Assembly (NCBI GenBank): GCA_020638635.1
Contig: JACKIE010000002.1
Span: forward strand, 133,140 to 197,139
Source of the DNA: Planctomycetota bacterium
GTDB lineage: Bacteria > Planctomycetota > UBA8742 > UBA2392
Length of the DNA: 64,000 nucleotides
Direction of reading: 5' to 3'
Positions 14,063 to 43,406 of the stretch are shown in pieces; position 1 is the first letter of the stretch, and each line of letters begins with the position of its first letter. The translations under genes and the position numbers were made by a program. Below the pieces are notes generated by a model that did no database searches, was not told where the DNA came from, and was given only the letters and a program-made list of their open reading frames with translations.

Positions 14063-14087
14063 TGTTTGTGACTCTCGTGTGGTGCAA

Positions 14088-17634: not shown

Positions 17635-17658
17635 GGGGGAGGCGTGATCGCCTCCCCC
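17635..17658 (-). terminator. intrinsic terminator of surface-protein gene B
   Basis: Same hairpin GGGGGAGGCG-tgat-CGCCTCCCCC, followed on the minus strand by TTGTTTGTTTGTTG. Confidence 0.7.
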
Positions 17659-17681
17659 TTTGTGTTGCGATTGTACTTCGA

Positions 17682-20600
17682 CTAGGCCTTGCGCAGGCGG
17701 AAGGCCAGCGCGGCCAGGCTCAGCAGGCCCAGCAGCATCATCCAGCTGTACGGCGTGTCGCCGCCAGTGGAGCACTTGCTGTCGTCGCCACCGCCGCCGC
17801 CGCTGCCGCTGCTCGGGGCGTTGATGGTGATCTGGAAGCTGGCGACCGCCGAGTCACTTACGTTGTCCACGGCGCGCACGTCGAAGCTGACCGTGCCCGC
17901 GGTGGTCGGGGTGCCGGTGATGTCACCGGTGGCGCTGAGGCTCAGGCCGGCCGGCAGGCTGGTGCCGTTGGCCAGGCTGTAGGTGTAGGGTCCGGTGCCG
18001 CCCGTGGCGGTGAGGGTGACCGTGGCGTAGACCGAGCCCACGGTGCCCGCGGCCAGCGGGCTGGTGTTGGTGAAGGTGATGGCGCCGGAGTTGCCCAGCA
18101 CCGTGATGCTGACGTTGACCGTGACGGTGTTGGTGCCGTCGTCGATGTCCATGCTGAACACCTGGACGCCGATGTCGGCCGCAACCAGCGTGGCGGTCGG
18201 TGCGACGCTCAGCACGCCGCCGGCCAGGCTGAAGGTGAAACCGCTTCCGCCGGTGGGGCCACTGCCCTGTGCGATGTTGCTCAGGGTAAGTGTCTGGCCG
18301 GTGTTGGCGTCGGTAACGCTGGCCAGGTTGATGCTGAGTGTGACCAGGTCGTTTTCTGCGAAGGTGGTCAAGTACGGAGTACCCACTGAGCCGTCGCCGC
18401 TGACACCCGTTGCAGCCGTGTGCTGCGGTGCAACGTCTACCACGATGATGCGGGCTGTGATGACCGTCGAGCTGGTGCCGTCGTTGATGTCGATGGCCCA
18501 GTCGTAGTTGCCCGGGGTGTTGCTGGCCGCCGCCGTGCCGGTCCAGGTCAGGCTGATGGGTCCCGCTGTCGGGGTCAAGATGTCCGCGGGTTCGGCTGTC
18601 AAACCGGTGAGTGCGGTGCCCGGGGCGGTGACGTCAACCGTCATGTTGTCCGGCGTGGCGTCAGTGACATCGAGGGTGTCCGCGATGGCTGCGCCCGGGT
18701 TCACGGTGAGGGTGAACAGGCCGCCGCCCGCGTCCACCCAGTTGGAGGTGCCGACACTTACGACCGGCGGAACATTGGCTACCACGTCGAGGGAAACCGT
18801 GATGGTCTGGTCGTTTGCCACGTTTCCGTCGGTTACGACCACGTCAAACACCTGGGTGCCGATGTCGGCCGCCACCAGGGTGCCGGCAGGCGCGACGGTG
18901 AGGGCGTTGGCCGCCAGCGAGAACTGGAAGCCGGTGCCGCCGGTCGGGCCGCTGGTCTGGCTGGGCGTGCCGGAGATGGTGACTGTCTGGCTGGTGTTGG
19001 CGTCGGTGACCGTTGCCAGGTCAACGCTGTTGGCGCCGGTGTTGCCCACCGCGAAGGTGTACGTGTACGGCGTGGCCACCGAGCCGTCGCCGCCGCTGGC
19101 GTTCAGAATCGTGTGCTGAGGCGGCACGTCCACGATGATGATCCGCGCGGTGATGCTGACGACGGTGGTCCCGTCGTCTATGTCGATCAGCCAGTCGTAG
19201 TTGCCCGGGGCGTTGCTGCCGTCAGCCGTGCCGGTCCAGGTCAAGCTGATGGGGCCGGCGGTCGGGGTGGTGATGTCCACGGGCTGGGCGGTCAGGCCGG
19301 TGAAGGTTGGGCTGGTGACCACGTCCACGGTCATGTTGTCGGGCGTGGGGTCGGTGACTTCCAGGGTGTCGGCGATGGCCGCGCCCGGGTTCAGTGTAAG
19401 GGTGAACAGGCCGCCGCCGGCGTCAACCCAGTTGGAGCCGGTCTGGTTGGCCACAACCGGTGGAACGTTGGAGACCGCGTTGCCCGAGACCGTGAAGTCA
19501 TACGGGTTTTCGTCCAGGTCGTCGTTGTCGATGCTGACGGTGAAGTCGTAAGCACCGGCCGCAGTCGGAACCACGTTGATGACGAATGTGGTGTTGCTGC
19601 CGCCGGCTACCGGGGTCGTGGGCAGGGTAGTCACAGTAACGGTGGAGACGTTGGTGCCGGCAGTGACGCTCACCAGCGGCGTGCCGGTGAGATTCAGGCT
19701 TTCGCCACCGTTGTTCTCGATGGTGTAGGTCAGGTTCGTGCCGGCGGTCAGGATCTGAACGGTGTCAGTACCGCCATCGGCAACCGGCGTCGCGCCGCGC
19801 AGAACGTCCATCTCGGCCGGGTAGCCGATCCAGACGTCGTCGAAAGCGAAGCCGTCCGCCTGGGTGTTGGTATCCGAGCCGAACACCACACGCAGGAACA
19901 CCGAAGCCTGGCCGGACAAACCGGTCAGCTGGTGCATCGCCGTTACCCAGCCCAGGCTGCCGGCCGCAGCGTCGCCGGTCCAGCCATCAAGCTGTCCGGA
20001 GCCCGCCTGCAGGCCGTCGATCGAGTTGAAATTGAACCAGTTGTTGGGGTCGCCGGATGCGCCGACATTCTGCCAGCTTGCGCCGTTGTCGATGGACGAC
20101 TGCAGAACCGCGCCGTCCCAGGTGTTTTCGGCGTCCCACCAGATGGCCATGCGAATCCACGGGTCGGAAGTCAGCGCCGACATGTTGAAGCGCGGGCTCA
20201 CGACAGCGCCGTCCTCATTGTCCAGATACGCGCCTGTCGCGTCGGTAGTCCAGGAGTTGGTGCCTGATGCCGCGGAGTTGATTACGGCGCCGGCCGGTGT
20301 GGCGAGTTCCCAGCTTGAGACGTTCCCGGAGACGGTCCAGTCGTCCGCGGTTGCAGCCGTCTCGAAGTCTTCAGTGTATGGGAAGGTTGAAACCGTCCCC
20401 TTGTGGCGGACGGTGATGCTTGAGGCGTCGTTGCCGGGGGTCGAGTCGCCGGCCAGGTTCGTCTGCGCGTCAATGACGTAGGTGGTTGAAGGCGTGGACA
20501 GGTTCGCCGTGGCGGTGAACACAAACGTAGCCTCGGAGAGATACAGCAGCGTGCCGGGGAAGTTCTCCACCACCGGGGTGCCGCTGTTCACCTGGAACTG

Positions 20601-22304: not shown

Positions 22305-22505
22305 CCGAATCTCCCCAGTTTTAGGCGCGGCCTGCCGGCCGCAAGCTAAGTCTTCGGTTCGTGGCACAATCGTGGAAGCCAGGCACGCGTGACGCACCTG
22401 CAAGGACCACCTTCAGAAGTCCCCACGAACTTGACGCGTAAGTCTGTCTCGGATTGATCCGGAGGCAAGCAAAAAGGATGCAAGAAGCACTAAGTGTTGT
22501 GGCAT
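22305..22505 (-). promoter_or_regulatory. conserved 5' leader/promoter region of gene B with stem-loop 22327-22342
   Basis: Collinear with the gene A leader. Hairpin GCGGCC-ggca-GGCCGC lies 22 nt upstream of the ATG. Confidence 0.45.
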
Positions 22506-22600
22506 AAGCCACTTCCACAGGCATGGAATTGTAGTTCGTCTCGGTTGGGGTACGCATCCGGTGGCGCAACCCACCCTGATGGAGCGTTTAGATAGAAAAA

Positions 22601-22624
22601 GGGGGAGGCGTGATCGCCTCCCCC
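22601..22624 (-). terminator. intrinsic terminator of surface-protein gene C
   Basis: Identical hairpin GGGGGAGGCG-tgat-CGCCTCCCCC, followed on the minus strand by TTTTTCTATC. Confidence 0.7.
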
Positions 22625-22647
22625 TTTGTGTTGCGATTGTGCTTCGA

Positions 22648-25600
22648 CTAGGCCTTGCGCAGGCGGAAGGCCAGCGCGGCCAGGCTCAGCAGGCCCAGCA
22701 GCAGCATCCAGCTGTACGGCGCGTTGCCGCCGGTGCTGCAACCGCCGTCGTCGCCACCGCCGCCGCCGCTGCCGCTGCTCGGGGCGTTGATGGTGATCTG
22801 GAAGCTGGCGACCGCCGAGTCATTGAGGCTGTCCACCGCGCGCACGTCGAAGCTGACCGTGCCCGCAGTGGTCGGGGTGCCGGTGATGTCACCGGTAGCG
22901 CTGAGGCTCAGGCCGGCCGGCAGGCTGGTGCCGTTGGCCAGGCTGTAGGTGTAGGGTCCGGTGCCGCCCGTGGCGGTGAGGGTGACCGTGGCGTAGACCG
23001 AGCCCACGGTGCCCGCGGCCAGCGGGCTGGTGTTGGTGAAGGTGATGGCGCCGGAGTTGCCCAGCACCGTGATGCTGACGTTGACCGTGACGGTGTTGGT
23101 ACCGTCATCGATGTCCATGCTGAAGACCTGGGTGCCGACGTCGTTCGCATTCAGCGTGGCCGACGGGGCGACCGACAGCACGCCGGTCAGCAGCGTGAAG
23201 GTGAAGCCGCTGCCGGTGGTCGGGCCGCTGGACTGCGCAACGTTTGTCAGGTTCAGCACCTGGCCGGTGTTGGCGTCGGTCACGTTCGCCAGGTTGGTGC
23301 TCTGCGTGGCCAGGTCATTCTCGGCGTACGTCGTTGCGTACGGGGTGCCCACGCTGCCGTCGCCGGAGATGCCGGTGGCGGCGGTGTGCTGCGGGGCCAC
23401 GTCCACCACGATGATGCGGGCAGTGATGCTGACCGTGCTGACACCGTCGCCGATGTCGATGGCCCAGTCGTAGTTGCCCGGAGTGTTGCTGCCGTTCGCG
23501 GTGCCGGTCCAGGTCAGGCTGATGGGTCCGGCGGTCGGCGTGGTGATGTCCACGGGCTGGGCCGTCAGTCCGGTGAAGCTGGGGCTGGTGACCACATCCA
23601 CGGTCATGTTGTCGGGGGTGGGGTCGGTGACTTCGAGGGTGTCCGCGATGGCTGCGCCCGGGTTCACGGTGAGCGTGAACAGGCCGCCACCCATGTCTAC
23701 CCAGTTTGAGCCGGTCTGGTTGGCCACGACAGGCGGCAGGTTGCTGATGGCGTTGCCGCTGACCGTGAAGTCGTACGGGTTTTCGTCACTGTCATCGTTG
23801 TCGATGCTGACCGTGAAGTCGTAGGCACCGGCCGCTGTCGGAACCACGTTGATGACGAAGGTGGTGCTGCCGCCGCCCGCCACCGGGCTGGTGGGCGGAG
23901 TGGTGACGGTGACCGTGCTGACGTTGGTGCCGGCCGTGACCACGACCAGCGGGGTGCCGGTCAGGTTCAAGTCAACGCCGCCAGTGTTTTCGATGGTGTA
24001 GGTCAGGTTGCTGCCGGTGGTCAGGATCTGCACGCCGGTATCCGTGCCGCCGTCGGCGACCGGAGTAGCGCCGCGCAGGACGTCCATCTCCGCAAGTTCA
24101 TAGAGCTGGATGTCGTCAAACACGTGGCCGTCTGTGGCAAACGGGAAGTTGTCATCGCCCTGGAAGCGGATGATGACCTGGTTGGTGTAGTTAAGCGTCG
24201 CCGCAACCAGAGCCGCGGACACGTCCACGACCACGTTCTGCAGGACTGTGGTGCCGTTCTGAAGCACGTACAGCTGCAAGGACCAGGTTGCTCCGCCGTC
24301 GAGGCTCAGGTACACGCCGTCCGGGGCCGTGTTTTCATCGCCGGTTTCCGCCCAGTTGAAGTCAAGAATCAGCGTGTCCGTGTTCGCGTTGTAGGCCGAC
24401 AGGTCGAATGCATAGTCAATCGCGCCGGCGGACTGTCCATTGGGGAAATCGATCCCGGCCTGGTTCGTGCCGCTGCTTGGCGTCACGCCGGAAGCGGCGA
24501 CAGCGCCGAACTGAATCTGCGACTGGATAGCGTAGGTCACTGTGGTGGGCGGAGTTCCGCCAGAGGGGAACGTGCCGTCAATTTGCGTACTGCGGTTGAA
24601 GATCGTGGTTGCCGGCTCGAAGTCATCCAGGAACGGCAGAGCGCTGAAGTAACCGCTCACGTTGTGGACAGAGCCGGTGGTCGGAGTGCCCGAAACCGGA
24701 CCCGGTGTTGCGACCACAGCGGTCACGTCACAGCCGAAAGTGTCGCCAGGCGTGGCCGTGCCGGCAAGGCTGAAGCTGATCAGGTAGTTCCCGACCGTCG
24801 GGTTGGTCACAACCGAAGTGAGGCCGGTGAACGAAGCAGTTCCGGAGGCAAACACCTGGGTTCCGCCGATCTGGGTATCGGTACCGGTTTCCAGCGTGCC
24901 GTTGGAGTTGGTGTCCTCCCACAGCTTGACTTCGGTGATCTGGCCATCTGGCAGAGTGCCGGTCTTGGCCACCTCTACACTGGTGATGGTCTGGGCGCCG
25001 GCCGCGGATGTCGCCGTGAAGCGGGCGACTACAGCATCGGTTGCAGGTGCGAAGATGGAAGCTGCGGTTGGGCTGTTGTCCGCTATAGCCAGGTCTGGAG
25101 ACGCCGCGTCACCGGCGATGGTGAAATCGTACGGATTCTCGTTCGGGTCGTTGTTGGCAAAGGTGATCGTGCACGACCAAGCGCCCGCCGCAGTAGGTGT
25201 CACGTCCACGACCAGGGTCGTGCTGTTGCCGGTGGTCACAGGCGAGGTGGGCTGGGTTGAAATGGTGGCCGTGCAGTTCACCAGTGTTCCGGGAGCCGCC
25301 ACAGGCGTGGTAATGGTGAGGTCCTGGAGGCCTCCATTGGAGATTGAATAAGTGACAGGCACCGTGATGCCGGTGACCAGAGTGCCGACGTTGTCCGTGC
25401 TGCCGTCGGCAACGTTGGTTGCACCGCGCGAAACTCCAATTTCAGAGTTGCCAGCGCCACCGCCCACGATAGCCAGCTGCCAGGACAACAGTACGCCAGT
25501 GTCGCCGGTAGCCGTGTCGGCAATGCCGAGGATCCAGGTCCCATTTGGTGAACCGGAGTTATACAGCGCGTCAAACGCCGCGGTTCCCTCCGGAATGTAG

Positions 25601-31337: not shown

Positions 31338-32375
31338 GTGCGGTTCAGCAACGTTCACATTGAATCTGTCGGCTATTTGCTGCCCGATCGTGTCGTGACC
31401 TCACTGGAAATCGAGGACCGGCTGGCCCCCGCCTATGAACGACTGGGGCTGCACCCCGGACGGATCGAATTGATGTCCGGCATCCGCGAACGCCGGCATT
31501 TTGAGCCGGGCACACGCCCCAGCGCGGTTGCAACCAAGGCGGCGGAGTTTGCCCTGCAGCGCGCGGGCATCGATCGCGATCAACTCGGCATCCTGATCTT
31601 CAGCAGCGTGTGCCGCGATTTCATGGAGCCGGCCACGGCCAGCGTGGTGCACGCGAACCTGAAGCTGCCGCTGGGCTGCCAGTGCTTCGACCTGTCCAAC
31701 GCCTGCCTCGGCTTCGCCAACGCCATGATGGTGGCGGCCAACATGATCGAGCTGGGCCAGGTCAAGGCCGCGCTGGTTGTCGCCGGTGAAGACGGCGGGC
31801 CGCTGGTGGAGGCGACCATAAAGCGGCTGAATGAAGACAGCAGCATCGGCCGCAAAGAAAGCAAGCTCAGCTTCGCCAGCCTGACCATCGGCTCAGGCGC
31901 GGCCGCCATGGTGCTGACGCACGCGGACCTGGCAAAACACGACCACAAGCTGCTGAGCGGCGGCATGTTGGTGGATTCCAGCGCCGTGGAGCTGTGCCAG
32001 GGCGGCGTTGTGGAAGGTGCTGCGGGGCCGCTGATGCAGACAGACAGCGAGACCCTGATGCAGGAAGGAGTGAAGCTGGCCACCCGGGTCTGGGCGGAAA
32101 CCAAGGCTGAACTCGGCTGGCAGAACAGCGATGTAGACCGCGTGTTCGCCCACCAGGTGGGCGTGATGCACCGCAAGCTGCTGTTCGAGAAGCTTGAGCT
32201 GGACCCGGCCAAGGATTTCCCGACCGTCGAGACGCTGGGGAACATCGGCAGCGTAAGCCTGCCGATCTCACTCAGCCTCGGCCTCGAGCAGGGCAAGGTG
32301 AACGCCGGCGACAACGTGGCGCTGCTGGGCATCGGCAGCGGCCTGGTGTGCCTGAACATGGGGGTGCGCTGGTGA
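31338..32375 (+). CDS. oleA: OleA-type thiolase (FabH-like 3-oxoacyl-ACP synthase III family)
   Basis: FabH-like fold with active-site FDLSNACLGF. Followed directly by oleB, oleC and oleD. GTG 31338 with RBS GGGAGAAGG is preferred over ATG 31275. Confidence 0.8.
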   Translation: MRFSNVHIESVGYLLPDRVVTSLEIEDRLAPAYERLGLHPGRIELMSGIRERRHFEPGTRPSAVATKAAEFALQRAGIDRDQLGILIFSSVCRDFMEPATASVVHANLKLPLGCQCFDLSNACLGFANAMMVAANMIELGQVKAALVVAGEDGGPLVEATIKRLNEDSSIGRKESKLSFASLTIGSGAAAMVLTHADLAKHDHKLLSGGMLVDSSAVELCQGGVVEGAAGPLMQTDSETLMQEGVKLATRVWAETKAELGWQNSDVDRVFAHQVGVMHRKLLFEKLELDPAKDFPTVETLGNIGSVSLPISLSLGLEQGKVNAGDNVALLGIGSGLVCLNMGVRW

Positions 32376-33394
32376 CCACCACTGAACAGGCGCGCCCCTT
32401 CACGGGCATCTGGGAACGCGAATACCCCTTCGCGTCGAACTGGCTCGACCTCGGCGAGGCGCGGCTGCATTACATCGATGAAGGGAGCGCTGGCTTCCAG
32501 CCGGCATCCGCCTTGGACGTCCCGTCCAAGGCTCGGGGCGTGAGACAGAGGCCAACGCCGAATGCAGGCGGGACGCCTGCGCTCCTGTTCCTGCACGGCA
32601 ACCCGACCTGGAGCTTCTACTGGCGCCACCTGGTCGAGGCCTTCCGGCCCACCAACCGATGCGTCGCCCTGGACCACATGGGCTGCGGCCTCTCCGACAA
32701 GCCCCAGTTCTACCCCTACACCCTGGCCCAGCACATCGAGAACGCCCGCGCGCTGGTCTACAAGCTTGACCTGCGCGACATCGTGCTGTGCGTCCACGAC
32801 TGGGGCGGCGCCATCGGCATGGGCCTGGCTGCGCAGATCCCGGACCGCATCAAAGGCTTCGTGGTGTTCAACACGGCCGCGTTCCCCAGCCGGCGCATGC
32901 CTTTGAGTATTGGCCTGTGCCGCCTACCGGGCTTCGGCGCGTTCGCGATCCGCGGCCTGAATGCTTTCGTGCGCGGTGCACTTGCGCGTTGCGCGAAGAA
33001 GCCGCTGTCAGCCGAAGCCAAGGCCGGCTACCTGGCGCCCTACAGCAACTGGGACGACCGCGTGGCCAACCTGCGCTTCGTGCAGGACATCCCGATGGAC
33101 ACGGGCCACGAGAGCTGGCCGACGCTGCAAGCCGTGGAGGCCGGCCTCGCGCAGTTCAAGCAGCACCCGATGCTGCTGTGCTGGGGCCGCCACGACTTCG
33201 TGTTCAATGACTCGTTCCTGCACGAGTGGCAGCAGCGCTTCCCGCAGGCGGAAACACAGTACTTCGAAAACGCCGGGCACTTCGTGGTGGAGGACGCCCG
33301 CAACGAGATCATAGCGGCCATGAAACGGTTCCTCGCGGGCGAAGAGCAGACCTACACGGACGAGCACCACTCTTCGGTCAACCTGCACGCATGA
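32372..33394 (+). CDS. oleB: OleB-type alpha/beta hydrolase (haloalkane-dehalogenase-like beta-lactone decarboxylase family)
   Basis: FLHGNPTWSFYWRH and VHDWGGAIG (Asp nucleophile). The GTGA overlap with the oleA stop suggests start 32372 (alternative 32348). The N-terminal region contains a REPIN-derived insert. Confidence 0.8.
   Translation: MTTTEQARPFTGIWEREYPFASNWLDLGEARLHYIDEGSAGFQPASALDVPSKARGVRQRPTPNAGGTPALLFLHGNPTWSFYWRHLVEAFRPTNRCVALDHMGCGLSDKPQFYPYTLAQHIENARALVYKLDLRDIVLCVHDWGGAIGMGLAAQIPDRIKGFVVFNTAAFPSRRMPLSIGLCRLPGFGAFAIRGLNAFVRGALARCAKKPLSAEAKAGYLAPYSNWDDRVANLRFVQDIPMDTGHESWPTLQAVEAGLAQFKQHPMLLCWGRHDFVFNDSFLHEWQQRFPQAETQYFENAGHFVVEDARNEIIAAMKRFLAGEEQTYTDEHHSSVNLHA
32483..32585. 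repeat. REPIN/MITE-like palindromic element inside the oleB coding sequence (in frame)
   Basis: GGGAGCGCTGGCTTCCAGCCGGC...GGACGtccCGTCC...GCAGGCGggaCGCCTGCGCTCC. Same family as 39844-39943 and 40188-40289. Translated as GSAGFQPASALDVPSKARGVRQRPTPNAGGTPAL. Confidence 0.7.
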
Positions 33395-33408
33395 GAAAAG
33401 GACACGGC

Positions 33409-33837
33409 ATGAACCGCAAAGAACCGCAAAGGACCGCGAAGAAAGACCTTGGGGATGACTTGCTGCTGAAGGAAGAAGTCTACGCCGTGATCGGCGCAGC
33501 GATCGAGGTGCATAAAGAGTTGGGACACGGCTTTCTGGAAGGCGTGTACGACGAGTGCTTCGGCTACGAGATGGAAGACAGACACGTTCCGCACGTAGCC
33601 CAACCAGAAGTGGAGATTCGGTACAAGCGCAGGCGCTGCAAGAAGAAGTACGTCCCAGATTACCTTTGCTTCGGCGAGATCGTGGTCGAGATCAAAGCAA
33701 TCAAGGTGCCGACAGAAGTCGAGGAAGCCCAGCTGATCAATTATCTACGGGCGACGGGCAAGCCTGTCGGTCTGCTCATGAACTTCGGAGCACGAGGGAA
33801 ACTGGAGTGGAAACGCATCGCACTGACGAAGGCGTAG
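33409..33837 (+). CDS. GxxExxY family protein (PD-(D/E)XK-like)
   Basis: GFLEGVYDE motif and the EIKA..KVPTEVEEAQLINYLRATGKPVGLLMNFG core. Wedged between oleB and oleC. Confidence 0.85.
   Translation: MNRKEPQRTAKKDLGDDLLLKEEVYAVIGAAIEVHKELGHGFLEGVYDECFGYEMEDRHVPHVAQPEVEIRYKRRRCKKKYVPDYLCFGEIVVEIKAIKVPTEVEEAQLINYLRATGKPVGLLMNFGARGKLEWKRIALTKA
33412..33441. repeat. left 30-bp inverted repeat of the GxxExxY cassette
   Basis: AACCGCAAAGAACCGCAAAGGACCGCGAAG, made of three decamer units. It is the reverse complement of 33841-33870 with 29/30 matches. Confidence 0.85.
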
Positions 33838-33840
33838 TTC

Positions 33841-33870
33841 CTTCGCGGTCCTTTGCGGTTCTTAGCGGTT
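33841..33870. repeat. right 30-bp inverted repeat of the GxxExxY cassette
   Basis: CTTCGCGGTCCTTTGCGGTTCTTAGCGGTT. It starts 4 nt after the cassette stop codon and ends 8 nt before the oleC ATG. Confidence 0.85.
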
Positions 33871-33877
33871 AATCAGC

Positions 33878-35647
33878 ATGACTATCAGTGAAGCAGAGCT
33901 GCCGGTTGCACGTGCTACCTCGGTCCAGGCCGTGGCGCCGCGCTGTAACGTCAGCGACTTCATCTTCGAGCAGGCGAAGCAGCGCCCTGAACAGGCGGCC
34001 GTGATCGAGCATGCCACTGGCCGTCGCGTCACCTACGCCGAGCTGGCAAAACGCATCGAGAACATCACCTTCGGCCTGACCCAGCTTGGCATCTGCAACG
34101 GCGCGCGCACGGTGTTCGCGATCAAGCCGGGCATCGAGTTCGTCGAGACCGTGTTCGCCTTGTTCCGCGCCGGGGCCGTGCCTGTGGTGGTCGATCCCGG
34201 CATGGGCGTGGATAACATGCTCAAGTGCATCGAGGAAGCTCAGCCCACGGCGCTGGTTGGCATCCCGATGGCGCACATGCTGAGCAAGCTGAAGTCCCGT
34301 GCCTTCCGCAGCGTGAAGCAGCGCGTCACTGTTGGCCGTCGCTGGCTGTGGGGCGGCGCCAGCCTTGATGAACTGCGCGCGCGCAACGTAACGGGCGCAC
34401 AGGCCGCACCCACCACGGCCGAAACCACGGCCGCGATCCTGTTCACATCAGGCGCGACCGGCGTGCCCAAGGGCGTGGTGTTCCGCCAAGGTGTGTTCGT
34501 CGGGCAGACGGAGATGATCCGCGATGCCTACGACATCCAGCCCGGCGAAGTTGACGTGCCGTGCTTCGCACTGTTCGCGCTGTTCAGCGTGGCGATGGGC
34601 GTGACCATCGTGCTGCCCGACATCGATTTCTCGAATCCCGGCAAGGCCAGCCCTGCCAAGGTGGTGGACGCCATCAACGCCCACCACGCCACCATGAGTT
34701 TCGGCTCTCCGGCCGTGTGGAAGCGCGTGGGACCATACCTTGAGCAGACCGGCGTGACGCTGCCGACAATCAAGCGCATCCTGATCGCGGGCGCGCCGGT
34801 GCCATTCACGACACTGGCAATGTTCAAGGGCAAGCTCGCGCCCGAGGGCGACCTGCACACGCCTTACGGGGCCACGGAGTCGCTGCCCTTCAGCACCATC
34901 AGCGCGAGCGAGATCCTGGGCGAGACGCGGCTCGACACCGCCAACGGCGCAGGCACCTGCGTGGGCAAGCCGCTGCCCGGTGTGAACGCGAAGGTAATCC
35001 GCTTTGTGGACGGACCGATTGCGAGCCTTGATGACGCCGAAGAGCTGCCGACCGGCGAAGTCGGCGAGATCATCGTCAACAGCCCGGTGACCACACAGGA
35101 GTACTTCAACCGGCCGGAGAACAACAAGCTCGCCAAGATCCGTAGCGCAGGCGTCCCGCCTGCACAGGGCACGGCCGCCCCGCCCGTGCCAGAATCTCTC
35201 GGGCACGGTGCCCGCGATAGCGCGCGGCTCTGGCATCGCATGGGCGACGCCGGCTACTTCGACGCGAACGGCCGCCTGTGGTTCTGCGGCCGTGTGAATC
35301 ACCGCGTGGAAACCGCAAACGGCACAATGTGGCCGATCCGCGTAGAGGCCATCTTCAACAACCACGACGCCATCAGCCGCTGCGCGCTGGTGGGCCTGGG
35401 CGACCGGCCGAACCAGGTGCCCTGCATCGTGATCGAGTTGCACGACGGCCACATCCCCGAGAAAGACCTGCGCGAGCGCATCCGTAGTGAACTGCAGCGC
35501 ATGGCCGACGCCCACGAGCTGACCCGCGGCATCCGGTACTTCCTGTTCCATGAAGGCCTGCCCGTGGACGTGCGCCACAACGCCAAGATCAACCGAGAGG
35601 CCCTGAAGCACTGGGCCGATACCCAACTGCCTGAGGTGACGCAATGA
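33878..35647 (+). CDS. oleC: OleC-type AMP-dependent synthetase (olefin beta-lactone synthetase family)
   Basis: AMP-binding motif LFTSGATGVPKGVV, plus YGATE and WHRMGDAGYFD. Positioned in the ole operon. Contains a 30-aa REP-derived insert. Confidence 0.85.
   Translation: MTISEAELPVARATSVQAVAPRCNVSDFIFEQAKQRPEQAAVIEHATGRRVTYAELAKRIENITFGLTQLGICNGARTVFAIKPGIEFVETVFALFRAGAVPVVVDPGMGVDNMLKCIEEAQPTALVGIPMAHMLSKLKSRAFRSVKQRVTVGRRWLWGGASLDELRARNVTGAQAAPTTAETTAAILFTSGATGVPKGVVFRQGVFVGQTEMIRDAYDIQPGEVDVPCFALFALFSVAMGVTIVLPDIDFSNPGKASPAKVVDAINAHHATMSFGSPAVWKRVGPYLEQTGVTLPTIKRILIAGAPVPFTTLAMFKGKLAPEGDLHTPYGATESLPFSTISASEILGETRLDTANGAGTCVGKPLPGVNAKVIRFVDGPIASLDDAEELPTGEVGEIIVNSPVTTQEYFNRPENNKLAKIRSAGVPPAQGTAAPPVPESLGHGARDSARLWHRMGDAGYFDANGRLWFCGRVNHRVETANGTMWPIRVEAIFNNHDAISRCALVGLGDRPNQVPCIVIELHDGHIPEKDLRERIRSELQRMADAHELTRGIRYFLFHEGLPVDVRHNAKINREALKHWADTQLPEVTQ
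35142..35231. repeat. REP-like hairpin cluster inside the oleC coding sequence (in frame)
   Basis: GTAGCGCAGGCGtccCGCCTGCAC, GGCACGG..CCGTGCC and CGGGCACGGTGCCCG. The first 60 nt are collinear with the left end of the RAYT element (42383-42440). Translated as RSAGVPPAQGTAAPPVPESLGHGARDSARL. Confidence 0.65.
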
Positions 35648-36723
35648 AGGCAGTGGTGACAGGCGGCGCCGGTTTCCTGGGCGCGAAGATTGGTCAGCGT
35701 CTGCTGCAGCGCGGCGACGAAGTAACAATCATGTCCCGCTCCGCAAGCAGGCATTCCGCGCCGCACGCAGGCGCACGTGTGGTTGATGCCGACCTGCGCG
35801 ACGCAGACGACGTCGCCCGCGCGCTCGAAGGTGCCGACGCGGTCTTCCACGCCGCCGCCAAGGCCGGCGTGTGGGGCCCGCGGGCGGAGTACTTCGGCAT
35901 CAACCTGGCCGGCACGCGCAACGTGCTGGCCGCCTGCCACAAGCACGGCGTGCAAGAGCTGGTCTACACCAGCACGCCCAGTGTGGTGTTCGAGCGCGGC
36001 GGGATTGACGGTGGCGACGAAACGCTGCCCTACCCGAAGAAGTTCCTCACCCATTACGCCGAATCCAAGGCTCTGGCCGAGCAGGAAGTGCTGGCCGCCA
36101 ACGGCGTGCACGGCCTGCGCACGGTGGCCCTGCGCCCGCACCTGATCTGGGGCGCGGGCGACCCGCACCTTCTTCCGCGTGTGCTGGAGCGCGCGCGCGA
36201 GGGCAAACTCAAGCAGGTCGGCGACGGCCGCAACCGCGTGGACATCACCCACGTGAACGACGCCACCGACGCCCACCTGCTGGCGCTTGAGCACATCGAG
36301 CGCGCCGCGGGCAAGGCCTACTTCATCAGCAGCGAAACGGTCGAGTTGTGGCCCTGGCTCAATTTCGTGCTGGAGCGTTCGGGAGTCGCGAAACTCAGCG
36401 CGCAGGTCAGCGCGGCCACGGCTTATCGCGCCGGCGCGGTGATGGAGTTCGTCTGGCGCCTGCTGGGTATCGGCAGCGAGCCGCCGATGACGCGCTTTGT
36501 GGCCGAGAACCTGGCGACTTCGCACTGGTTCAGGCTGGATGCAGCTAAGCGCGACCTCGGCTACCAGCCCCGCTGGACGGGCGCAAAAGCGCTGGACGAG
36601 TATTTCGGTAACGGCCCCGCCATCACGGGTGGGGAAACAACCCTGGATAGTGATCTGGGCTCTGACTCCCCCGGCCTGCCGGCCGGGGCTGAGGGAGCGC
36701 TTCAGGAGCAACGCCATGGATAA
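35644..36723 (+). CDS. oleD: OleD-type NAD(P)-dependent reductase (3-beta-HSD/epimerase family)
   Basis: VTGGAGFLG Rossmann motif and YAESK (YxxxK). ATGA overlap with oleC. Confidence 0.85.
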   Translation: MKAVVTGGAGFLGAKIGQRLLQRGDEVTIMSRSASRHSAPHAGARVVDADLRDADDVARALEGADAVFHAAAKAGVWGPRAEYFGINLAGTRNVLAACHKHGVQELVYTSTPSVVFERGGIDGGDETLPYPKKFLTHYAESKALAEQEVLAANGVHGLRTVALRPHLIWGAGDPHLLPRVLERAREGKLKQVGDGRNRVDITHVNDATDAHLLALEHIERAAGKAYFISSETVELWPWLNFVLERSGVAKLSAQVSAATAYRAGAVMEFVWRLLGIGSEPPMTRFVAENLATSHWFRLDAAKRDLGYQPRWTGAKALDEYFGNGPAITGGETTLDSDLGSDSPGLPAGAEGALQEQRHG

Positions 36724-37351
36724 TGTGCTACGCGAACACCTGATGACGTTCGAGACGTTCTTCTCGGCCATCGGCTTCAAGTCGCGGCTGGGCAAGGTGT
36801 GGGGGCTGCTGGCGCTGGCCGGCAAGTCGCTCAGCGCCGCGGACATCGCCAACGAGCTCGACATGAGTGCCGGCTCGGTCAGCGAATGTCTGTCCGAATT
36901 GCGCGAGTGGGGCGCAGTCACCAGCGAATTCTCAAGCGAACACCGCTGTCAGATGCACAGCGCGGTCAGCGACACCATGAGCATCGTGACCACCGTACTG
37001 CGCCGCCGCGAGCAGCTGGCCGTGCAGAACTTCAAGGACAACGCCCGCAGCGCCCTGCAGTACGTGACCGAGCGCTACGGCAGCAACGACGCCCGCGTGC
37101 ACACACTGCAGAGCATCGTGACGACTAGTGAAATTGCCGAAGCCACCATCCAGTTCTTCGTGGCCGCCAGCAGCGCGGTTCCCAAGAACGACGAGTCGCG
37201 CCTGGCCCGCGTGGTCAAGCGCATGGCCGCCATCGGCATGAAAATGCCCGGCGAGATCAACAAGTTCCGCAACGGCCGTCGTAAGACCGGCCAGCTGAAC
37301 GGCAACGCCACCTCGGCGCCTGTGGAAGAAGCGGAGGACGCCCATGTATAG
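36716..37351 (+). CDS. GbsR/MarR-type winged-helix transcriptional regulator
   Basis: ATG 36716 overlaps the oleD stop by 8 nt. KVWGLLALAGKSLSAADIANELDMSAGSVSECLSELREWGAV is HTH-like. Confidence 0.7.
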   Translation: MDNVLREHLMTFETFFSAIGFKSRLGKVWGLLALAGKSLSAADIANELDMSAGSVSECLSELREWGAVTSEFSSEHRCQMHSAVSDTMSIVTTVLRRREQLAVQNFKDNARSALQYVTERYGSNDARVHTLQSIVTTSEIAEATIQFFVAASSAVPKNDESRLARVVKRMAAIGMKMPGEINKFRNGRRKTGQLNGNATSAPVEEAEDAHV

Positions 37352-38579
37352 CCTTCCGCGCGTGGTGATCACCGGCGTCGGCCTGACCGCGCCCAACGGC
37401 AACAACCTGGCCGAGTTCCGGCAAGCTTTGCTGCAGGGCAAGTCGGGCGTGCAGCCCTACGAAATCCGCTATTTCGGCAAAACCCTGGCGGGCATCTGCA
37501 ACTTCGAGGCCACCCGCTACCAGAAGCGCAAGGACCTGCGCCGCGGCACCCGCGCCGGCAGCATCAGCATCTACTGCGCCCACGAGGCGCTGAAAGACGC
37601 GGGCATCGGCTGGGATGGCGTTGACAAGTCAAGGGTCGGCGTATACGTCGGCACCACCGAGCACGGCAACGTCGAGACCGAGACCGAGATCTACGAGGTC
37701 AGCAAGCAGAACTACAACCTCGATTTCTGGACCCACCACCACAACCCGCGCACAGTGGCCAACAACCCGGCCGGCGAGGTGACGCTCAGCCTCGGCATCA
37801 CCGGCCCGGCCTACGCCATTGGTGCGGCCTGCGCGGCCGGCAACCTGGGGGTGATCCACGCCACCCAGATGCTGCAGCTGGGCGAGGTGGACCTGGCGTT
37901 CGGTGGCGGCGTCAGCGAGAGCATTCACACCTTCGGCATCTTCGCCGGCTTCAAGCAGCAGGGCGCGCTCGCGCACCGTGAAGACCCGACCAAGGCTTCG
38001 CGCCCCTTCGACAAGGCCCGCAACGGCATCGTAGTCGCCGAAGGCGGCTGCCTGTACACGCTGGAGCGCCTGGATGACGCGCTCAAGCGCGGCGCGAAAA
38101 TCTACGCCGAGATCGCCGGCTGGCACGTCAACAGCGATGCCAGCGACTACGTGCTGCCGAATTCCGAGCGGCAGATGCAATGTATGCGCGCCGCCATCAA
38201 ACGCGCAGGCATGCAGCCCGGTGACGTTGACATCGTCAACACCCACGCAACCAGCACGCCCAGCGGCGACGAAATGGAAGCCGCGGCCGTCAACGCCGTG
38301 TTCGGTGACTACGACGGCGTGCACGTCAACAACACCAAGAGTTACATCGGCCACGCCATGGGTGCCGCGGGCGCTTTAGAGCTGGCCGGCAACCTGCCCA
38401 GCTTTGAAGACGGCGTGGTGCACCCGACCATCAACATCGATGAGCTGGACCCGGAATGCGCCGTGCGCGGCCTGGTGATCAACCAGCCCAAACAGGCGGG
38501 AGAAGTGAAGACCATCATGAACATGAGCTTCGGCATGCTGGGCATTAACTCAGCGCTGATCGTGAAGAAGTACGAATAG
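37344..38579 (+). CDS. beta-ketoacyl-ACP synthase I/II family (FabF/FabB-like)
   Basis: Cys-His-His triad contexts AIGAACAAGN, NTHATSTPSGD and KSYIGHAMGAAG. Overlaps the regulator stop by 8 nt. Confidence 0.9.
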   Translation: MYSLPRVVITGVGLTAPNGNNLAEFRQALLQGKSGVQPYEIRYFGKTLAGICNFEATRYQKRKDLRRGTRAGSISIYCAHEALKDAGIGWDGVDKSRVGVYVGTTEHGNVETETEIYEVSKQNYNLDFWTHHHNPRTVANNPAGEVTLSLGITGPAYAIGAACAAGNLGVIHATQMLQLGEVDLAFGGGVSESIHTFGIFAGFKQQGALAHREDPTKASRPFDKARNGIVVAEGGCLYTLERLDDALKRGAKIYAEIAGWHVNSDASDYVLPNSERQMQCMRAAIKRAGMQPGDVDIVNTHATSTPSGDEMEAAAVNAVFGDYDGVHVNNTKSYIGHAMGAAGALELAGNLPSFEDGVVHPTINIDELDPECAVRGLVINQPKQAGEVKTIMNMSFGMLGINSALIVKKYE

Positions 38580-38580
38580 A

Positions 38581-38646
38581 GCCCCGGCCAGTTCGCGAAG
38601 CGAACGTGCCGCAGGAACGCACTGCGTTCCGAGGATGGCCGGGGGC
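38581..38646. repeat. composite REP-like palindromic element (intergenic)
   Basis: Outer stem GCCCCGGCC/GGCCGGGGC enclosing GTTCGCgaaGCGAAC and GGAACGCactGCGTTCC. Confidence 0.6.
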
Positions 38647-38695
38647 GAAGGGAACAACAAACAACGCCCGCAAGGGCACAACCAAGGAAGAAGCA

Positions 38696-38959
38696 ATGAC
38701 AGACGAAATGATCAAGCAGGCCATCATCGGGATCATCAACGACATCAACCCCGACGAGGACACCAGTAACATCGACGCGGCCACGCGCCTGCGCGACCAG
38801 CTCGACCTCGACTCGATGGACTTCCTCGACATCGTGATGGAGCTGCGCAAGCGCTACGGCGTGCACGTGCCCGACACGGACTACGAGCACCTCGCCAGCC
38901 TCGACAGCTGCGTGAACTACCTGCGCGACAAGATGGCCGGCAAGGAACTGGTGTCGTAG
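38696..38959 (+). CDS. acyl carrier protein
   Basis: 87 aa. The LDLDSMDFLDIV motif carries the phosphopantetheine Ser. RBS AAGGAAG. Confidence 0.85.
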   Translation: MTDEMIKQAIIGIINDINPDEDTSNIDAATRLRDQLDLDSMDFLDIVMELRKRYGVHVPDTDYEHLASLDSCVNYLRDKMAGKELVS

Positions 38960-38963
38960 TCGC

Positions 38964-39033
38964 CAGTTGTCAGTTGTCGGTTGTCAGCGGCAGCGCTGAG
39001 CCCGGTAAACTGACAACTGATAACCGACAACTG
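38964..39033. repeat. long imperfect hairpin with arms built from heptamer tandem repeats (empty cassette-like)
   Basis: Arms are CAGTTGTCAGTTGTCGGTTGTCAG and CTGACAACTGATAACCGACAACTG. As RNA the 24-bp stem has 1 mismatch and 2 G-U pairs, with a 22-nt loop. Confidence 0.75.
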
Positions 39034-39039
39034 AAAACC

Positions 39040-40605
39040 ATGTCCCACTATGACGCCATCATCATCGGTGCGGGGATGTCCGGCCTGGCGGCCGGCATCC
39101 GTCTGGCCATGTACGACAAGAAGGTTGTCGTGCTGGAGCGTCATTACGTGTGGGGCGGGCTGAACTCGTTCTACCAGTTTCAGGGGCACCAGTTCGACGT
39201 GGGCCTGCACGCTATGACGAATTACGCCCCGCGCGGGGCCAGGGGCCTGCCGCTGACGCGGTTGCTGAAGCAACTGCGCATCCGCTGGGAAGAGCTGGAC
39301 CTGCACCAGCAGGGCCACAGCGCGGTCAGCTTCCCGGGCCTGAAACTGAATTTCAGCAATGACTTCGAGCTGCTGCGCAGCGAAATCGCCCGCGCATTCC
39401 CGGGGCAGATCGACGGCTTTGATGCATTGACGCGTCAAGTGCGTGGCTACAACGAGTTTGACCTCAACGCGCCCACGCTCAACGCCCGCGAGATCGTGGA
39501 GTCGCACACCACCGACCCCGTGCTGGCCGACATGCTGTTCTGCCCGCTGATGTTCTACGGCTCAGCCCGCGAGAACGACATGGACTGGGACCAGTTCGTG
39601 GTGATGTTCAAAAGCATCTTCTTCGAAGGCTTCGCAAGGCCGCAGGCAGGCGTGCGGCATATTTTAAAACTGCTGATTGATCGCTATCGCAGGGCCGGCG
39701 GCGAACTGCGCCTGAAAGCCGGCGTGTCGCGCATCATCACCGACGGCCAACGCGCCACCGGCGTCGAGCTAGACAACGGCGAAACCCTCACGGCCGACAA
39801 CGTGCTGTCGTCAGCGGGACTTGTGGAGACAGGGCGACTGGTAGGGAGCGCCGGCCTCTGGCCGGCAGATGCCGTGGACGTTCCGTCCACGGCGGGCGCG
39901 GACAAAATGTCCGCGCAGCAGGCCGCCGGGACGGCGGCGCTCCGTGGCAAACTCTCCTTCACAGAAACCATAAGCGTGCTGGACAAACCCGCGCGCGATC
40001 TGGGCATCGAAGAGACCATCATCTTCTTCAGCAACACCGAGCGCTTCAACTACGCGCAGCCCAATGACCTGTGCGACACCAGCAGCGGGGTGATCTGCAT
40101 GCCCGGCAACTTCAACCTGCCCCGGCAGCCCAAAGACCACCTCGTGCGCATCACCAACATCGCCAACTACGACAAGTGGGCGGCGCTGGGGAGCGCCGGC
40201 CTCCGGCCGGCACATGCCGTGGACGTCACGTCCACGGCTGACGCGCACAGGATGTCCGCGTCGAAAGCCGGCCAGAGGCCGGCGCTCCCGTACTACGAAG
40301 CCAAGCAGCACTGGTATGCGCGTTCCTGCGACGACGTGCTGAGCCACATCCCGGATTTCCGGCCGTACGTGTCGCTAGTGGACATGTTCACCCCTCGCAC
40401 GATACGGCACTACACCGGCCACGAAGGGGGCGCCGTGTACGGCAGCCCGCTCAAGAAGCGCACCGGCGAGAGCGGCGTGGAAGGCCTCTACATCATCGGC
40501 ACCGACCAGGGCTTTTTAGGCATCATCGGCGCCATGCTGAGCGGCATCAGCATGGCCAACCGCTGGGTACTTCAACGCGACAACGCAGCGGTGGAGACAA
40601 CATGA
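39040..40605 (+). CDS. NAD(P)/FAD-dependent oxidoreductase, phytoene-desaturase (CrtI)-like, with two REPIN inserts
   Basis: [20 protein letters not shown] dinucleotide-binding motif. The C-terminal [17 protein letters not shown] region is typical of the amine-oxidase/CrtI fold. Confidence 0.8.
39844..39943. repeat. REPIN/MITE-like element in CDS (in frame), copy 1
   Basis: GGGAGCGCCGGCCtctGGCCGGC..GTGGACGttcCGTCCAC..GCGCGGACAaaaTGTCCGCGC..CGGCGGCGCTCC. Translated as [33 protein letters not shown]. Confidence 0.75.
40188..40289. repeat. REPIN/MITE-like element in CDS (in frame), copy 2
   Basis: GGGAGCGCCGGCCTCCGGCCGGC..GTGGACGtcaCGTCCAC..GCCGGCCAGAGGCCGGCGCTCCC. It is 102 nt, or 34 codons. 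Translated as [33 protein letters not shown]. Confidence 0.75.
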
Positions 40606-42143: not shown

Positions 42144-43406
42144 ATGAGTGACGCCCTCGAACAAGTGAAAGCCCGCATTCCGCACCGGGAGCCGTTCCTG
42201 TTCGTGGACCGCATCCTCGAGCAGGGGCAAGGCCGCATAGTCACCGAAAGAATTGTGCGCGCCGACGAGCCCCAATTCCAAGGCCACTATCCCGGCAGCC
42301 CACTGATGCCCGGCGTGCTGCTATGCGAAGCCTGCTTCCAGACCGGCGCCATGCTGTTGAGGAGCGCAGGCGCCTTGGCCCGTAGCGCAGGCTCCCAGCC
42401 TGCACAGGCCGTGGGCGCCCCGCCCACGGCACCCCCAGAATCAGCTTTCGCTCCAATCGACCCCCGAGTCATGAAACGCCATCGAGGCTACCTTCCGCAC
42501 TGGGAGCGCGAGCACGCAACCTACTTCGTAACCTTCCGGCTGGCGGATTCGCTGCCGGCCGATGCCCGCAAGCGCATTGAGGACCAGCGCTACGACATCG
42601 TAAAGACCGCCGAACACCTGAACCGGCCGCTGACGGATACCGAGCGTGAACGGCTGGATCAGCTCTATTCAGTCACCTTCGATGAACTGCTGAACGTCGG
42701 TCACGGAGCATGCCACCTGGCGAACGCCGACTGCGCGGCCGTCGTCGCTGAGACGCTCACGAAGTGGGACGGCGAACGGTATGCGCTGTACGCCTGGTGC
42801 GTGATGCCGAACCATGTGCATGCAGTGTTTCGGCCGTTTGCGGGGCAGGCGCTTGGCGAAATTCTCCATTCGTGGAAGTCGTTTACGGCCAAGGCGTGTA
42901 ACAAGCTGCTCGGCCGCACGGGTGAATTCTGGCAGCGGGAGTCGTTTGACCGCTTGATCCGCGACCGTGAGGAGTTTGACAAACGCGTGCGCTACACGGT
43001 TGAGAATCCGGCTGCGGCGGGCCTGGTGGGCTGGAAGTGGGTTGGTGGGAGTGCCGTGGACGGGGCGTCCACGGCCGGTGCAGGCGAGGCGCCTGCGCTA
43101 CGGGGTGCAGGCGAGACGCCTGCGCTCCCGACTGCGGGTGAGGCGCCCGCATCACCAACTGCTGCGGGCGAGGCGCTCGCATCACCAACTGCTGCGGGCG
43201 AGGTGCCCGCATCACGGCGCAAGCCGGTGCTTACTCGCATCCTGGAGGCTAAGTTCCGGGGCATGGTGGTGCCGGGGGACGTCCTGCGCGTTGAAGTTGA
43301 GCAGGAAGAAAAAATGGGTGACGCCTTCGTCATGAACGGCAAAGTGTCCTGCGCGGGCAAGAACGTCCTGCGCGTGAAGTTCATCGTGGCGATGATCGAA
43401 CTGTAG
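42144..43406 (+). CDS. FabZ/FabA-like hot-dog dehydratase interrupted in frame by a REP-RAYT element (420-codon continuous ORF)
   Basis: Residues 1-72 ([40 protein letters not shown]) plus residues 358-420 ([21 protein letters not shown]..) make a full-length FabZ. Residues 73-357 are mobile-element derived. Confidence 0.8.
42360..43214 (+). mobile_element. REP-associated tyrosine transposase (RAYT, IS200-like Y1) unit with inverted REP pairs
   Basis: Internal ATG at 42471. Motifs RGYLPHWE and [15 protein letters not shown] motif is NHVHAV. The Tyr context is RYTVENP. Left REPs at 42361-42405 are the inverse of right REPs at 43078-43129 (GGAGCGCAGGCG..GTAGCGCAGGC..GCCTGCAC). Confidence 0.8.
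43131..43217 (+). repeat. 3 x 30-nt tandem repeat of hairpin units (GCTGCGGGCGAGGCGCYCGCATCACCAACT)
   Basis: Read directly from the sequence. Translated in frame as ([10 protein letters not shown])-like decapeptides at the junction back into fabZ. Confidence 0.8.

Follow-up and report, generated by a model that had tools for sequence, protein, structure and literature searches.

The 64,000-nt stretch of the Planctomycetota bacterium contig JACKIE010000002.1 (assembly GCA_020638635.1) analyzed here, referred to as the window, carries palindromic DNA elements inside the genes for OleB, OleC, and a CrtI-like oxidoreductase, together with a gene for a repetitive extragenic palindromic (REP)-associated tyrosine transposase (RAYT) that is lodged in a fabZ-like dehydratase gene of the same cluster. 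These elements are very probably nonautonomous REPs and REP doublets forming hairpins (REPINs) of the GTAG-REP superfamily, which are tied to the RAYT in fabZ and are tolerated in frame in loops of the encoded enzymes.

The original prediction, made from the letters of the window, had placed four copies of one element in coding sequence and a fifth between genes. Three of the four, one in oleB and two in the CrtI-like gene (sites 1 and 2; Table 1), are full elements of about 100 nt with a common layout, namely GGGAGC, hairpin A (a 7-bp stem with a 3-nt loop), a 4-nt spacer, hairpin B (10 bp, 3-nt loop), hairpin C, hairpin A', and GCTCC, in which the outer stem GGAGC/GCTCC and hairpins A and A' constitute two inverted REPs that make a larger hairpin. 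Compared with shuffled sequences, the z-scores of DNA folding are −5.76 for the oleB element, −7.69 for CrtI-like site 1, and −10.68 for CrtI-like site 2. The fourth copy, in oleC, proved to be only partial and decayed, with a weak fold (z = −2.45); its left part, consisting of GTAGC-hairpin A, ACAG, a hairpin-B-like stem, and AGAATC, matches the left flank of the RAYT. The shared outer inverted repeats and inner hairpins were confirmed by this common layout and by pattern counts far above expectation, with 9 matches to the hairpin-A pattern AGCGCNGGCNNNNNGCCNGC and 5 to the hairpin-B pattern in the window against 0.02 expected in each case, all of them between 32.4 and 43.2 kb. Likewise, 16 of the 21 perfect GC-rich hairpins with a 7-bp stem and a 3-nt loop in the window are found inside this 10.9-kb cluster. 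No direct repeats flanking the elements were visible at the junctions in the element sequences of the window and its relatives.

The supposed fifth copy, at 38581-38646, had to be removed from the family, being a stable hairpin (z = −5.6) without sequence similarity to the other elements, and the orthologous spacers of relatives, between the ketoacyl synthase (KAS) and acyl carrier protein (ACP) genes, carry unrelated hairpins. It forms a 66-nt three-way hairpin immediately after the KAS stop codon and is single-copy in all sequence compared; because of this, and of the different hairpins in the spacer of relatives, it may be a terminator, a stabilizer, or a member of another repeat family.

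The transposase open reading frame (ORF) matches Pfam Y1_Tnp and NCBIfam REP_Tyr_transpos (E = 7e-20, 71 bits), and its homologues number in the thousands, many of which are named 'REP element-mobilizing transposase RayT'. It lies in frame within fabZ, resulting in a 420-aa FabZ(N)-RAYT-FabZ(C) ORF whose C-terminal FabZ part is highly conserved. As predicted, the unit is bounded on both sides, in inverted orientation, by the same foot, hairpin A, and hairpin B (fold z of −5.39 on the left and −5.61 on the right). Both the REP-doublet anatomy and the modules held in common with these flanks support the view that the gene-internal elements are nonautonomous derivatives of the RAYT unit, and from their sequences we infer mobilization by the fabZ RAYT.

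The arrangement is retained at the same fabZ site in at least four genomes (Table 1; L- and P-numbers denote the loci and proteins compared in the analysis, L004 and L208 being sister genomes). L205 has the C-terminal FabZ part in a different frame, and an intact 149-aa FabZ is present in L003 and more distant relatives. Another FabA/ApeI-Y1_Tnp fusion, P0129, occurs in the protein database. Genomes with the RAYT in fabZ (the window, L002, L004, L205, and L208) contain 3–10 hairpin-A motifs, all confined to the cluster; among those without it, L003 has only minimal hairpins and L126-L128 have none. This relationship between RAYT presence and REP load, drawn from a small sample, fits local RAYT-dependent maintenance.

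The gene-internal copies are read in one codon phase, in which AGC encodes Ser and no stop codon occurs, with AGC GCN GGC giving S-A-G and GCN GGC ... CCN GCG CTC giving A-G-x-x-P-A-L; the oleB element translates as GSAGFQPASALDVPSKARGVRQRPTPNAGGTPAL and the oleC element as RSAGVPPAQGTAAPPVPESLGHGARDSARL. Since the elements are nearly free of stop codons in all six frames, an open frame is easily obtained, whereas the composition of the peptide depends on the frame, the one used giving a G/S/A/P/T-rich peptide and the alternatives R/C/W-rich ones. A built-in length in multiples of three was considered and rejected, as REPIN spans in the general sample are unbiased modulo 3. The claim that every copy is read through in frame thus stood, all being codon-aligned, whereas the 30–34 residues said to be added were revised to a net gain of 22–30 relative to insert-free orthologues (OleB +24, OleC +25 to +28, CrtI-like site 1 +22, and site 2 about +30). 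When the inserts were placed on structures, a check that had been proposed at the outset, loops were found in all cases, by alignment to the Protein Data Bank (PDB) entries 8ckp and 8r2q for OleB and OleC and as low-confidence coils in an AlphaFold model (pTM 0.81) for the CrtI-like protein. The elements are probably translated as floppy surface loops in three enzymes, and the inserts may be functionally neutral.

Conservation within the elements was assessed in an alignment (A5) nearly free of indels that comprises 16 full copies, taken from three genes and seven genomes, and follows a five-helix structure. Across the 16 copies, 94.2% of stem cells are paired, compared with 30–39% when the partners are slid, and two-sided change is observed in 17 of 38 pairs (73 cells); none of 500 shuffles reached the observed values. 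The insert peptides change radically, as exemplified by AVDVPSTA versus AGDLGSPA. Mismatches of the G·T type (16) are about as frequent as those of the A·C type (14), so that selection on the mRNA strand is unsupported by wobble counts and the constraint is therefore taken to act on the DNA palindrome rather than specifically on the mRNA. On the evidence of the aligned sequences, it is the DNA palindrome, not the peptide, that is the conserved object.

Orthologues provide a view of how the insertion sites have changed. About 70 of them, from other phyla and with 45–50% identity, have no insert, being about 458 aa long with a 16-residue loop at CrtI-like site 1. The metagenome scan supplied mostly such distant orthologues, which serve as an insert-free outgroup, and only four moderately close loci; in some distant CrtI-like loci the matches extend over about 2200 nt, which might have been taken for large insertions but is due to an adjacent paralogous oxidoreductase. 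In the planctomycete clade (60–87% identity), the four loops are variously empty, minimal, full, or expanded. Empty sites are found in L003 (OleB and CrtI-like site 2), L004 (OleC), and L208 (CrtI-like site 1), while the minimal state is represented in L003 by a 30-nt single perfect palindrome GGGAGCGCCGGCTGGAAGCCGGCGCTCC at CrtI-like site 1 and a 51-nt two-hairpin REPIN in OleC. The full state amounts to about 100–105 nt, with a homologous insert at the OleB site in L004 and L208 and full elements at the OleC site in L207 and L208 (117 nt in L208). Expansion is seen at CrtI-like site 1 in L002 (10805-10945) and L205 (8790-8969), where a second GTAG-tagged REP, GTAGC-AGCGAT...ATCGCT, is nested in hairpin A and is read in frame as ..RSSDPNEASLR..; a further REP (..KAGETSALQ) is appended in L205.

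The two sister genomes are reciprocal in their occupancy, OleC being empty in L004 and filled in L208 and CrtI-like site 1 being filled in L004 and empty in L208, and presence/absence differences between sister genomes come in steps of 75–102 nt. At least four element variants occur at CrtI-like site 1 among proteins that are 83–87% identical in the host-protein tree. The OleC insert of L207 is closer to the OleB insert of the window than to any insert at its own site, and the oleB and CrtI-like site 1 copies of L004 share an identity of 0.81, exceeding that of either to the orthologous window copy (0.69 and 0.76); the site 2 copies of the window and L002, for their part, share 0.87. The insert-free outgroup and the presence/absence among sister genomes indicate that the inserts are derived, and the same comparison shows that they have long resided in, and turned over within, the same few loops throughout the clade and are not fresh local hops. 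Turnover appears to overlay vertical inheritance, either through insertions that recur at permissive or pre-marked sites or through conversion from other copies.

At the OleB insert site of L205 (1877-1951), a different 75-nt repetitive, palindromic insert is present, built of CAGCAGTC / GACTGCCGACT units and read as EHPSQQSAVSSQQFLPTADSRLSTL; this is a case of the same loop being used by another repeat family.

The distribution of the REP core was examined by a scan with GCAGGCGRGRCGCCTGCGCT, using one genome per species, which returned at least 120 stretches; the figures on breadth that follow apply among the matches listed. Planctomycetota, Verrucomicrobiota, Acidobacteriota, Cyanobacteria, Hydrogenedentota, Betaproteobacteria, Armatimonadota, Brocadiaceae, Bacteroidota, and others are represented, including the isolates Geminisphaera colitermitum TAV2 and Oscillatoria PCC 10802, closed chromosomes, and Prevotella/Bacteroidales metagenome-assembled genomes (MAGs). 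Approximately 71% of 148 copies lie outside long ORFs. The foot G[T/G]AG is present in 136 of 146 scorable copies (93%), as GTAG in 75 and GGAG in 61; in the window, the full elements have the GGAGC form, and the GTAGC form occurs in oleC and beside the RAYT. The core shares with the GTAG-REP superfamily a small-loop GC-rich stem-loop (stem of 6–13 bp) and a conserved tetranucleotide foot. Copies in frame with Pfam domains on both sides were identified in aconitase, GlmS, GcvP, ValRS (twice), MutL, P-type ATPase, DsbD, MOSC, E1-beta, Ser/Thr kinase, and autotransporter proteins. The S-A-G and A-G-x-x-P-A-L frames are the commonest, accounting for 26 of the 43 cases in long ORFs (shadow ORFs among them); an exclusive reading frame was rejected, as the REP is translated as AQASRL, QAGRLR, or RRDACA in real genes too.

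Minimal REPINs of 51–54 nt are present in L003 and in many sampled loci, the same REP stands on both sides of a related RAYT in an Acidobacteriota MAG (L096), and a close relative (L072, a 3.09-Mb contig) has one copy outside the ole cluster. At the protein level, a word-index search with a 68-aa concatenation of two insert peptides gave 7 candidates and no match, and an exhaustive HMMER search with a 3-sequence insert profile gave only 3 matches at E <= 0.001, having too little power for counting the protein families that carry the peptide. The REP core, together with its G[T/G]AG foot, thus turns up in very distant phyla, some of the single matches perhaps being due to chance; because classical REPIN families are lineage-specific, this distribution gives a hint that the REP-RAYT system has spread horizontally.

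On the preferred reading, each element of about 100 nt would consist of two inverted foot-plus-hairpin REP ends around one or two extra hairpins and would belong to a REP-RAYT system that has its transposase gene some 2 kb downstream, in fabZ. The RAYT, as an HUH/Y1 enzyme, would recognize foot and hairpin in single-stranded DNA, which it would cut and rejoin without target duplications; because it would act on single-stranded DNA, it is proposed that copies are seeded or replaced at replication forks. To persist in a gene, an element would need a net length change in multiples of three, freedom from stop codons, a G/S/A/P/T-rich frame, and a surface-loop site, and the outcome would be translated, disordered loops of 22–30 residues in OleB, OleC, and the CrtI-like enzyme. 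Across the clade, four permissive loops would have been repeatedly filled, cut to single 'double-foot' hairpins, emptied, and refilled with other variants. Conservation of the palindrome fits either recognition by an enzyme acting on single-stranded DNA or palindrome-correcting repair.

Several points weigh against this reading. The 71 bits scored by the RAYT fall below the equivalog cutoff of 80 bits for NCBIfam REP_Tyr_transpos, reading frames in the sample of at least 120 loci are biased without being exclusive, and no copy in the 64-kb window falls outside the cluster. In addition, recurrent occupancy of the loops could reflect one ancient insertion plus gene conversion, the identity matrix being mixed, and divergence between the filled and the empty sites is too great to define exact insertion junctions.

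It is also conceivable, as a tentative proposal, that the RAYT has resided in fabZ since before the species split and acts mainly in cis, reseeding, replacing, or homogenizing REPINs in the neighboring permissive loops, which would amount to a vertically inherited REPIN-RAYT population with a niche in coding sequence instead of intergenic DNA. If this were the case, the palindrome would be maintained while the encoded loops drift, and these loops would be hot spots of protein length variation.

Among the competing explanations, the one that survives best, although we consider it rather unlikely, is that one ancient insertion took place at each site without ongoing mobility, the later differences arising by decay, internal deletion between the inverted REP pair, and gene conversion or quasi-palindrome correction, with the RAYT as a domesticated gene or a dead passenger. 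Orthologous copies do occupy exactly the same sites in host proteins that are about 80% identical, the site 2 copies in the window and in L002 share 87% identity, the RAYT has been passed on vertically at a single fabZ site, and central deletion can yield double-foot single hairpins (Quentin 2018, PMC6006769). This explanation is difficult to reconcile with the unrelated variants, at least four of them, at CrtI-like site 1, with the reciprocal full and empty states of L004 and L208, with the resemblance of the L207 OleC insert to the window OleB insert, with the second REP type nested in the L002 and L205 copies, or with the minimal or missing hairpins of relatives that have no RAYT.

Selection by the host is an improbable alternative, according to which the hairpins would tune the long ole/fatty-acid operon as mRNA stabilizers, RNase or pausing sites, or DNA sites for gyrase or integration host factor (IHF). 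Such a role would be in keeping with hairpins kept by compensation over about 20–25% protein divergence and with copies that are all co-oriented in one operon, and intergenic REPs are known to stabilize upstream mRNA and to bind gyrase and IHF (literature reviewed in PMC3733652). It is opposed by the lack of strand asymmetry in the wobble counts, by the ribosomes that would unwind hairpins within coding sequence, by sites that are freely empty in the close relatives L003, L004, and L208 and a decaying copy in oleC, and by the occurrence of the same REP in unrelated genes and spacers of many phyla among the matches listed.

That the inserts are ordinary fast-evolving, low-complexity loops, without any mobile element and with palindromic DNA as an incidental feature or a by-product of GC-rich codons, is highly improbable. 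Insert loops do vary in length in other lineages, and Gly/Ala/Pro/Ser-rich peptides resemble many linkers; yet the same nucleotide modules recur in four genes and beside the RAYT (9 against 0.02 expected), the stems covary while the peptides change radically, the same 20-mer with its conserved foot appears in many phyla and also between genes among the matches listed, and sister genomes differ by presence/absence in 75–102-nt steps. Assembly or binning artefacts, such as chimeric joins at repeats, can be practically discounted even though the source is a MAG and repeats can mis-assemble, given that an identical CrtI-like protein is encoded on two independent contigs (130 kb and 455 kb), homologous inserts occur in more than 10 independent assemblies (NCBI, JGI, ENA, and Logan), the same REP is present in the isolate genomes of G. 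colitermitum TAV2 and Oscillatoria PCC 10802 and in closed chromosomes, and the reading frames remain intact.

Elements of this kind are already known, since intragenic GTAG-REPs, in-frame REPs in tnpA, and Rickettsia palindromic elements (RPEs) have been published. Di Nocera, De Gregorio, and Rocco (2013, BMC Genomics 14:522; PMC3733652) described GTAG- and CGTC-tagged REPs, some of which lie wholly inside ORFs; these intragenic REPs were most numerous in Opitutus terrae, of the PVC superphylum, and in R. conorii, more than half of the inserts were dimers or grouped repeats encoding 20–30 aa, and some ORFs had two. GTAG REPs were also reported there in Planctomycetes, and in association with RAYTs as 'REPtrons'. 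Like them, the present elements are GC-rich stem-loops of small size that have a conserved tetranucleotide foot on the 5' side, lie mostly between genes, and sometimes occur within ORFs (PMC3733652). They differ from the O. terrae families listed in that source, which encode the peptides GTGVPPV and VGPALAAG, in consisting of GCAGGCG-NNN-CGCCTGC and its GCCGGCC variants, and from the GTAG-REPs described there in having a GGAG foot as often as GTAG and in forming four-hairpin composites of about 100 nt. The turnover at orthologous sites and the stem covariation traced here are not part of that 2013 study (PMC3733652).

As in REPIN-RAYT systems (Bertels and Rainey 2011, PMC3116915; Nunvar 2010, PMC2817692; Ton-Hoang/Messing 2012, PMC3479197), an inverted REP pair forms a larger hairpin and the RAYT is flanked by the same REPs; a RAYT vertically inherited at a fixed locus and REPINs that appear to decay without it are further similarities. 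Classical REPINs are extragenic and dispersed, whereas all copies in the 64-kb window lie in coding sequence belonging to a single operon; here, unlike in the classical systems, the RAYT gene is in frame inside fabZ; and classical REPIN families are lineage-specific, whereas the present core is common to many phyla among the matches listed. The transposase resembles TnpA-REP subclass 2.4, or group 4 of Bertels (PMC6006769), in its NH[IFV]H, WQ, and Y-x-x-x-NP motifs, in its length (about 190 aa here and about 194 aa there), in the presence of long and 'double-foot' REPs, and in the presence of in-frame REPs in coding sequence, which in that subclass is tnpA itself. That subclass occurs in Cyanobacteria, Bacteroidetes, and various other phyla (PMC6006769), matching the spread of the REP core, while its Y motif is YIxNNP, compared with Y-T-V-E-N-P here. 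By motif comparison alone, membership of the RAYT in subclass 2.4 fits. Quentin (2018) reported in-frame REPs inside tnpA-REP genes, with the comment that inserts of this sort are tolerated in loops (PMC6006769).

The likeness to RPEs inside ORFs, drawn in the original prediction, is apt, both being in frame at surface-compatible sites. RPEs (Ogata 2000, Science 290:347; Ogata 2002, Genome Res 12:808) are in-frame palindromes of about 100–150 nt that are read through and, like the present elements, are found in unrelated housekeeping or metabolic genes at positions predicted to be surface-exposed and compatible with the fold (summarized in PMC10969869); RPE-4 and RPE-6 have been identified with intragenic CGTC repeats (Di Nocera 2013, PMC3733652). 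The two are alike in behavior only, as RPEs are AT-rich and confined to Rickettsia, whereas the elements of this planctomycete MAG are GC-rich with a G[T/G]AG foot, RPE sequences not having been aligned with them. RPE-1 encodes a conserved peptide, whereas here the palindrome is conserved instead. To our knowledge, no RAYT is associated with RPEs. Bacterial transposable elements of the miniature inverted-repeat type (MITEs), such as Correia/NEMIS, ERIC, and Nezha, are likewise small nonautonomous repeats found in genes and in in-frame fusions; however, the terminal inverted repeats of MITEs come from DDE-type insertion sequences, and MITEs generate target-site duplications. An origin of that type was rejected for the present elements, whose ends are foot-plus-hairpin REPs, whose partner is an HUH/Y1 transposase, and around which no duplication is visible. 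In the literature searched, no description was found of this REP sequence family or its cross-phylum spread, of the four-hairpin composite, of orthologous-site turnover with stem covariation, or of a RAYT unit in frame inside a host enzyme gene across at least four genomes.

Table 1. Host genes, palindromic elements, RAYT unit, and encoded inserts (window positions unless stated otherwise)
Feature	Position	Strand	Details
oleB, alpha/beta hydrolase (host gene)	32348..33394	+	
oleB element, full, REPIN-like	32483..32585	+	hairpin B 32510-32532; variant third hairpin; hairpin A' 32564-32580
OleB insert	residues 47-70		between 8ckp residues 48/49, adjacent there; just before HGNP strand (PDB alignment)
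oleC, AMP-dependent synthetase (host gene)	33878..35647	+	
oleC element, partial, decayed	35141..35231	+	GTAGC-hairpin A 35142-35163; right half degenerate
OleC insert	residues 417-449		in place of 5-residue loop of FadD5 8r2q, before GW..GD motif (PDB alignment)
CrtI-like NAD(P)/FAD-dependent oxidoreductase (host gene)	39040..40605	+	521 aa annotated; identical to P0001
CrtI-like site 1 element, full	39844..39943	+	hairpins 39850-39866, 39871-39893, 39896-39916, 39922-39938
CrtI-like site 1 insert	P0001 residues 271-301		coil, AF2 pLDDT < 50, between confident helices/strands
CrtI-like site 2 element, full	40189..40289	+	hairpins 40195-40211, 40216-40238, imperfect hairpin C, 40267-40283
CrtI-like site 2 insert	P0001 residues 387-414		coil, AF2 pLDDT < 50, between confident helices/strands
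fabZ/ApeI-like dehydratase (host gene)	42144..43406	+	RAYT unit splits gene in frame
RAYT left REP flank	42360..42437	+	degenerate GGAGC half-REP; GTAGC-hairpin A 42382-42403; hairpin B 42408-42430
RAYT-type Y1 (HUH) transposase ORF	42471..43040	+	motifs NHVH, WQ, Y-T-V-E-N-P; in frame within fabZ
RAYT right REP flank, inverted relative to left	43053..43129	+	hairpin B' 43053-43075; A'-GCTAC 43080-43101; A''-GCTCCC 43107-43129
Array at RAYT right end, like a bacterial interspersed mosaic element (BIME)	43134..43210	+	three 17-nt hairpins (GCGGGYGAGGYGCYCGC), 30-nt spacing, read through
RAYT in fabZ of relatives, same site	L002 14485-15594; L004 13228-14388; L208 11077-12207; L205 ~11621-12974		

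The host genes belong to a single co-oriented cluster at 31.2–44.3 kb, delimited by the ORFs of the window and their domain matches, which comprises oleA, oleB, a PDDEXK_3 ORF, oleC, oleD, a helix-turn-helix (HTH) regulator, KAS, ACP, two CrtI-like FAD oxidoreductases, the Y1-interrupted FabZ/ApeI-like dehydratase, and a short-chain dehydrogenase/reductase (SDR). The FabF-like protein of the window is identical to one encoded on contig JACKIF010000008.1 of assembly GCA_020638605.1. The PDDEXK_3 (GxxExxY-type) ORF, located at 33409-33873 between oleB and oleC, has 36-nt inverted repeats on both sides, which are 92% complementary and built of AACCGCAAAG-like units; a gene of this type is present at the same position in L004 and absent from L002, L003, L205, and L208, and the ORF with its repeats looks like a separate small mobile cassette. 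The spacer between ACP and the CrtI-like gene contains a long imperfect inverted repeat at about 38962-39035 (CAGTTGTCAGTTGTCGGTTGTCAG ... CTGACAACTGATAACCGACAACTG), through which a mechanically called ORF starting from TTG 38974 reads, the annotated start of the CrtI-like gene being ATG 39040. On the minus-strand side, the region 14000-24200 comprises three to four large paralogous repeats, in 300-nt blocks of 60–94% identity spaced by approximately 3.6–5.0 kb, which are probably tandemly duplicated surface-protein genes because nearby loci encode He_PIG-domain proteins.

Taken as they stand, these elements offer a comparative example of selfish palindromic DNA in enzymes, in which the structure is kept by compensation, the peptide is free to vary, and the same loops are reused across a clade. 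Inserts of this kind make the proteins of Planctomycetota, Verrucomicrobiota, and Acidobacteriota MAGs longer and more diverse in length, and they can mislead the assignment of orthologues, the delimitation of domains, and the prediction of structures. In addition, they flag loops of OleB, OleC, and the CrtI-like enzyme that tolerate 20–35 extra residues, which is useful for protein engineering. The cross-phylum REP core, if confirmed by a full census, bears on how REP-RAYT systems spread.

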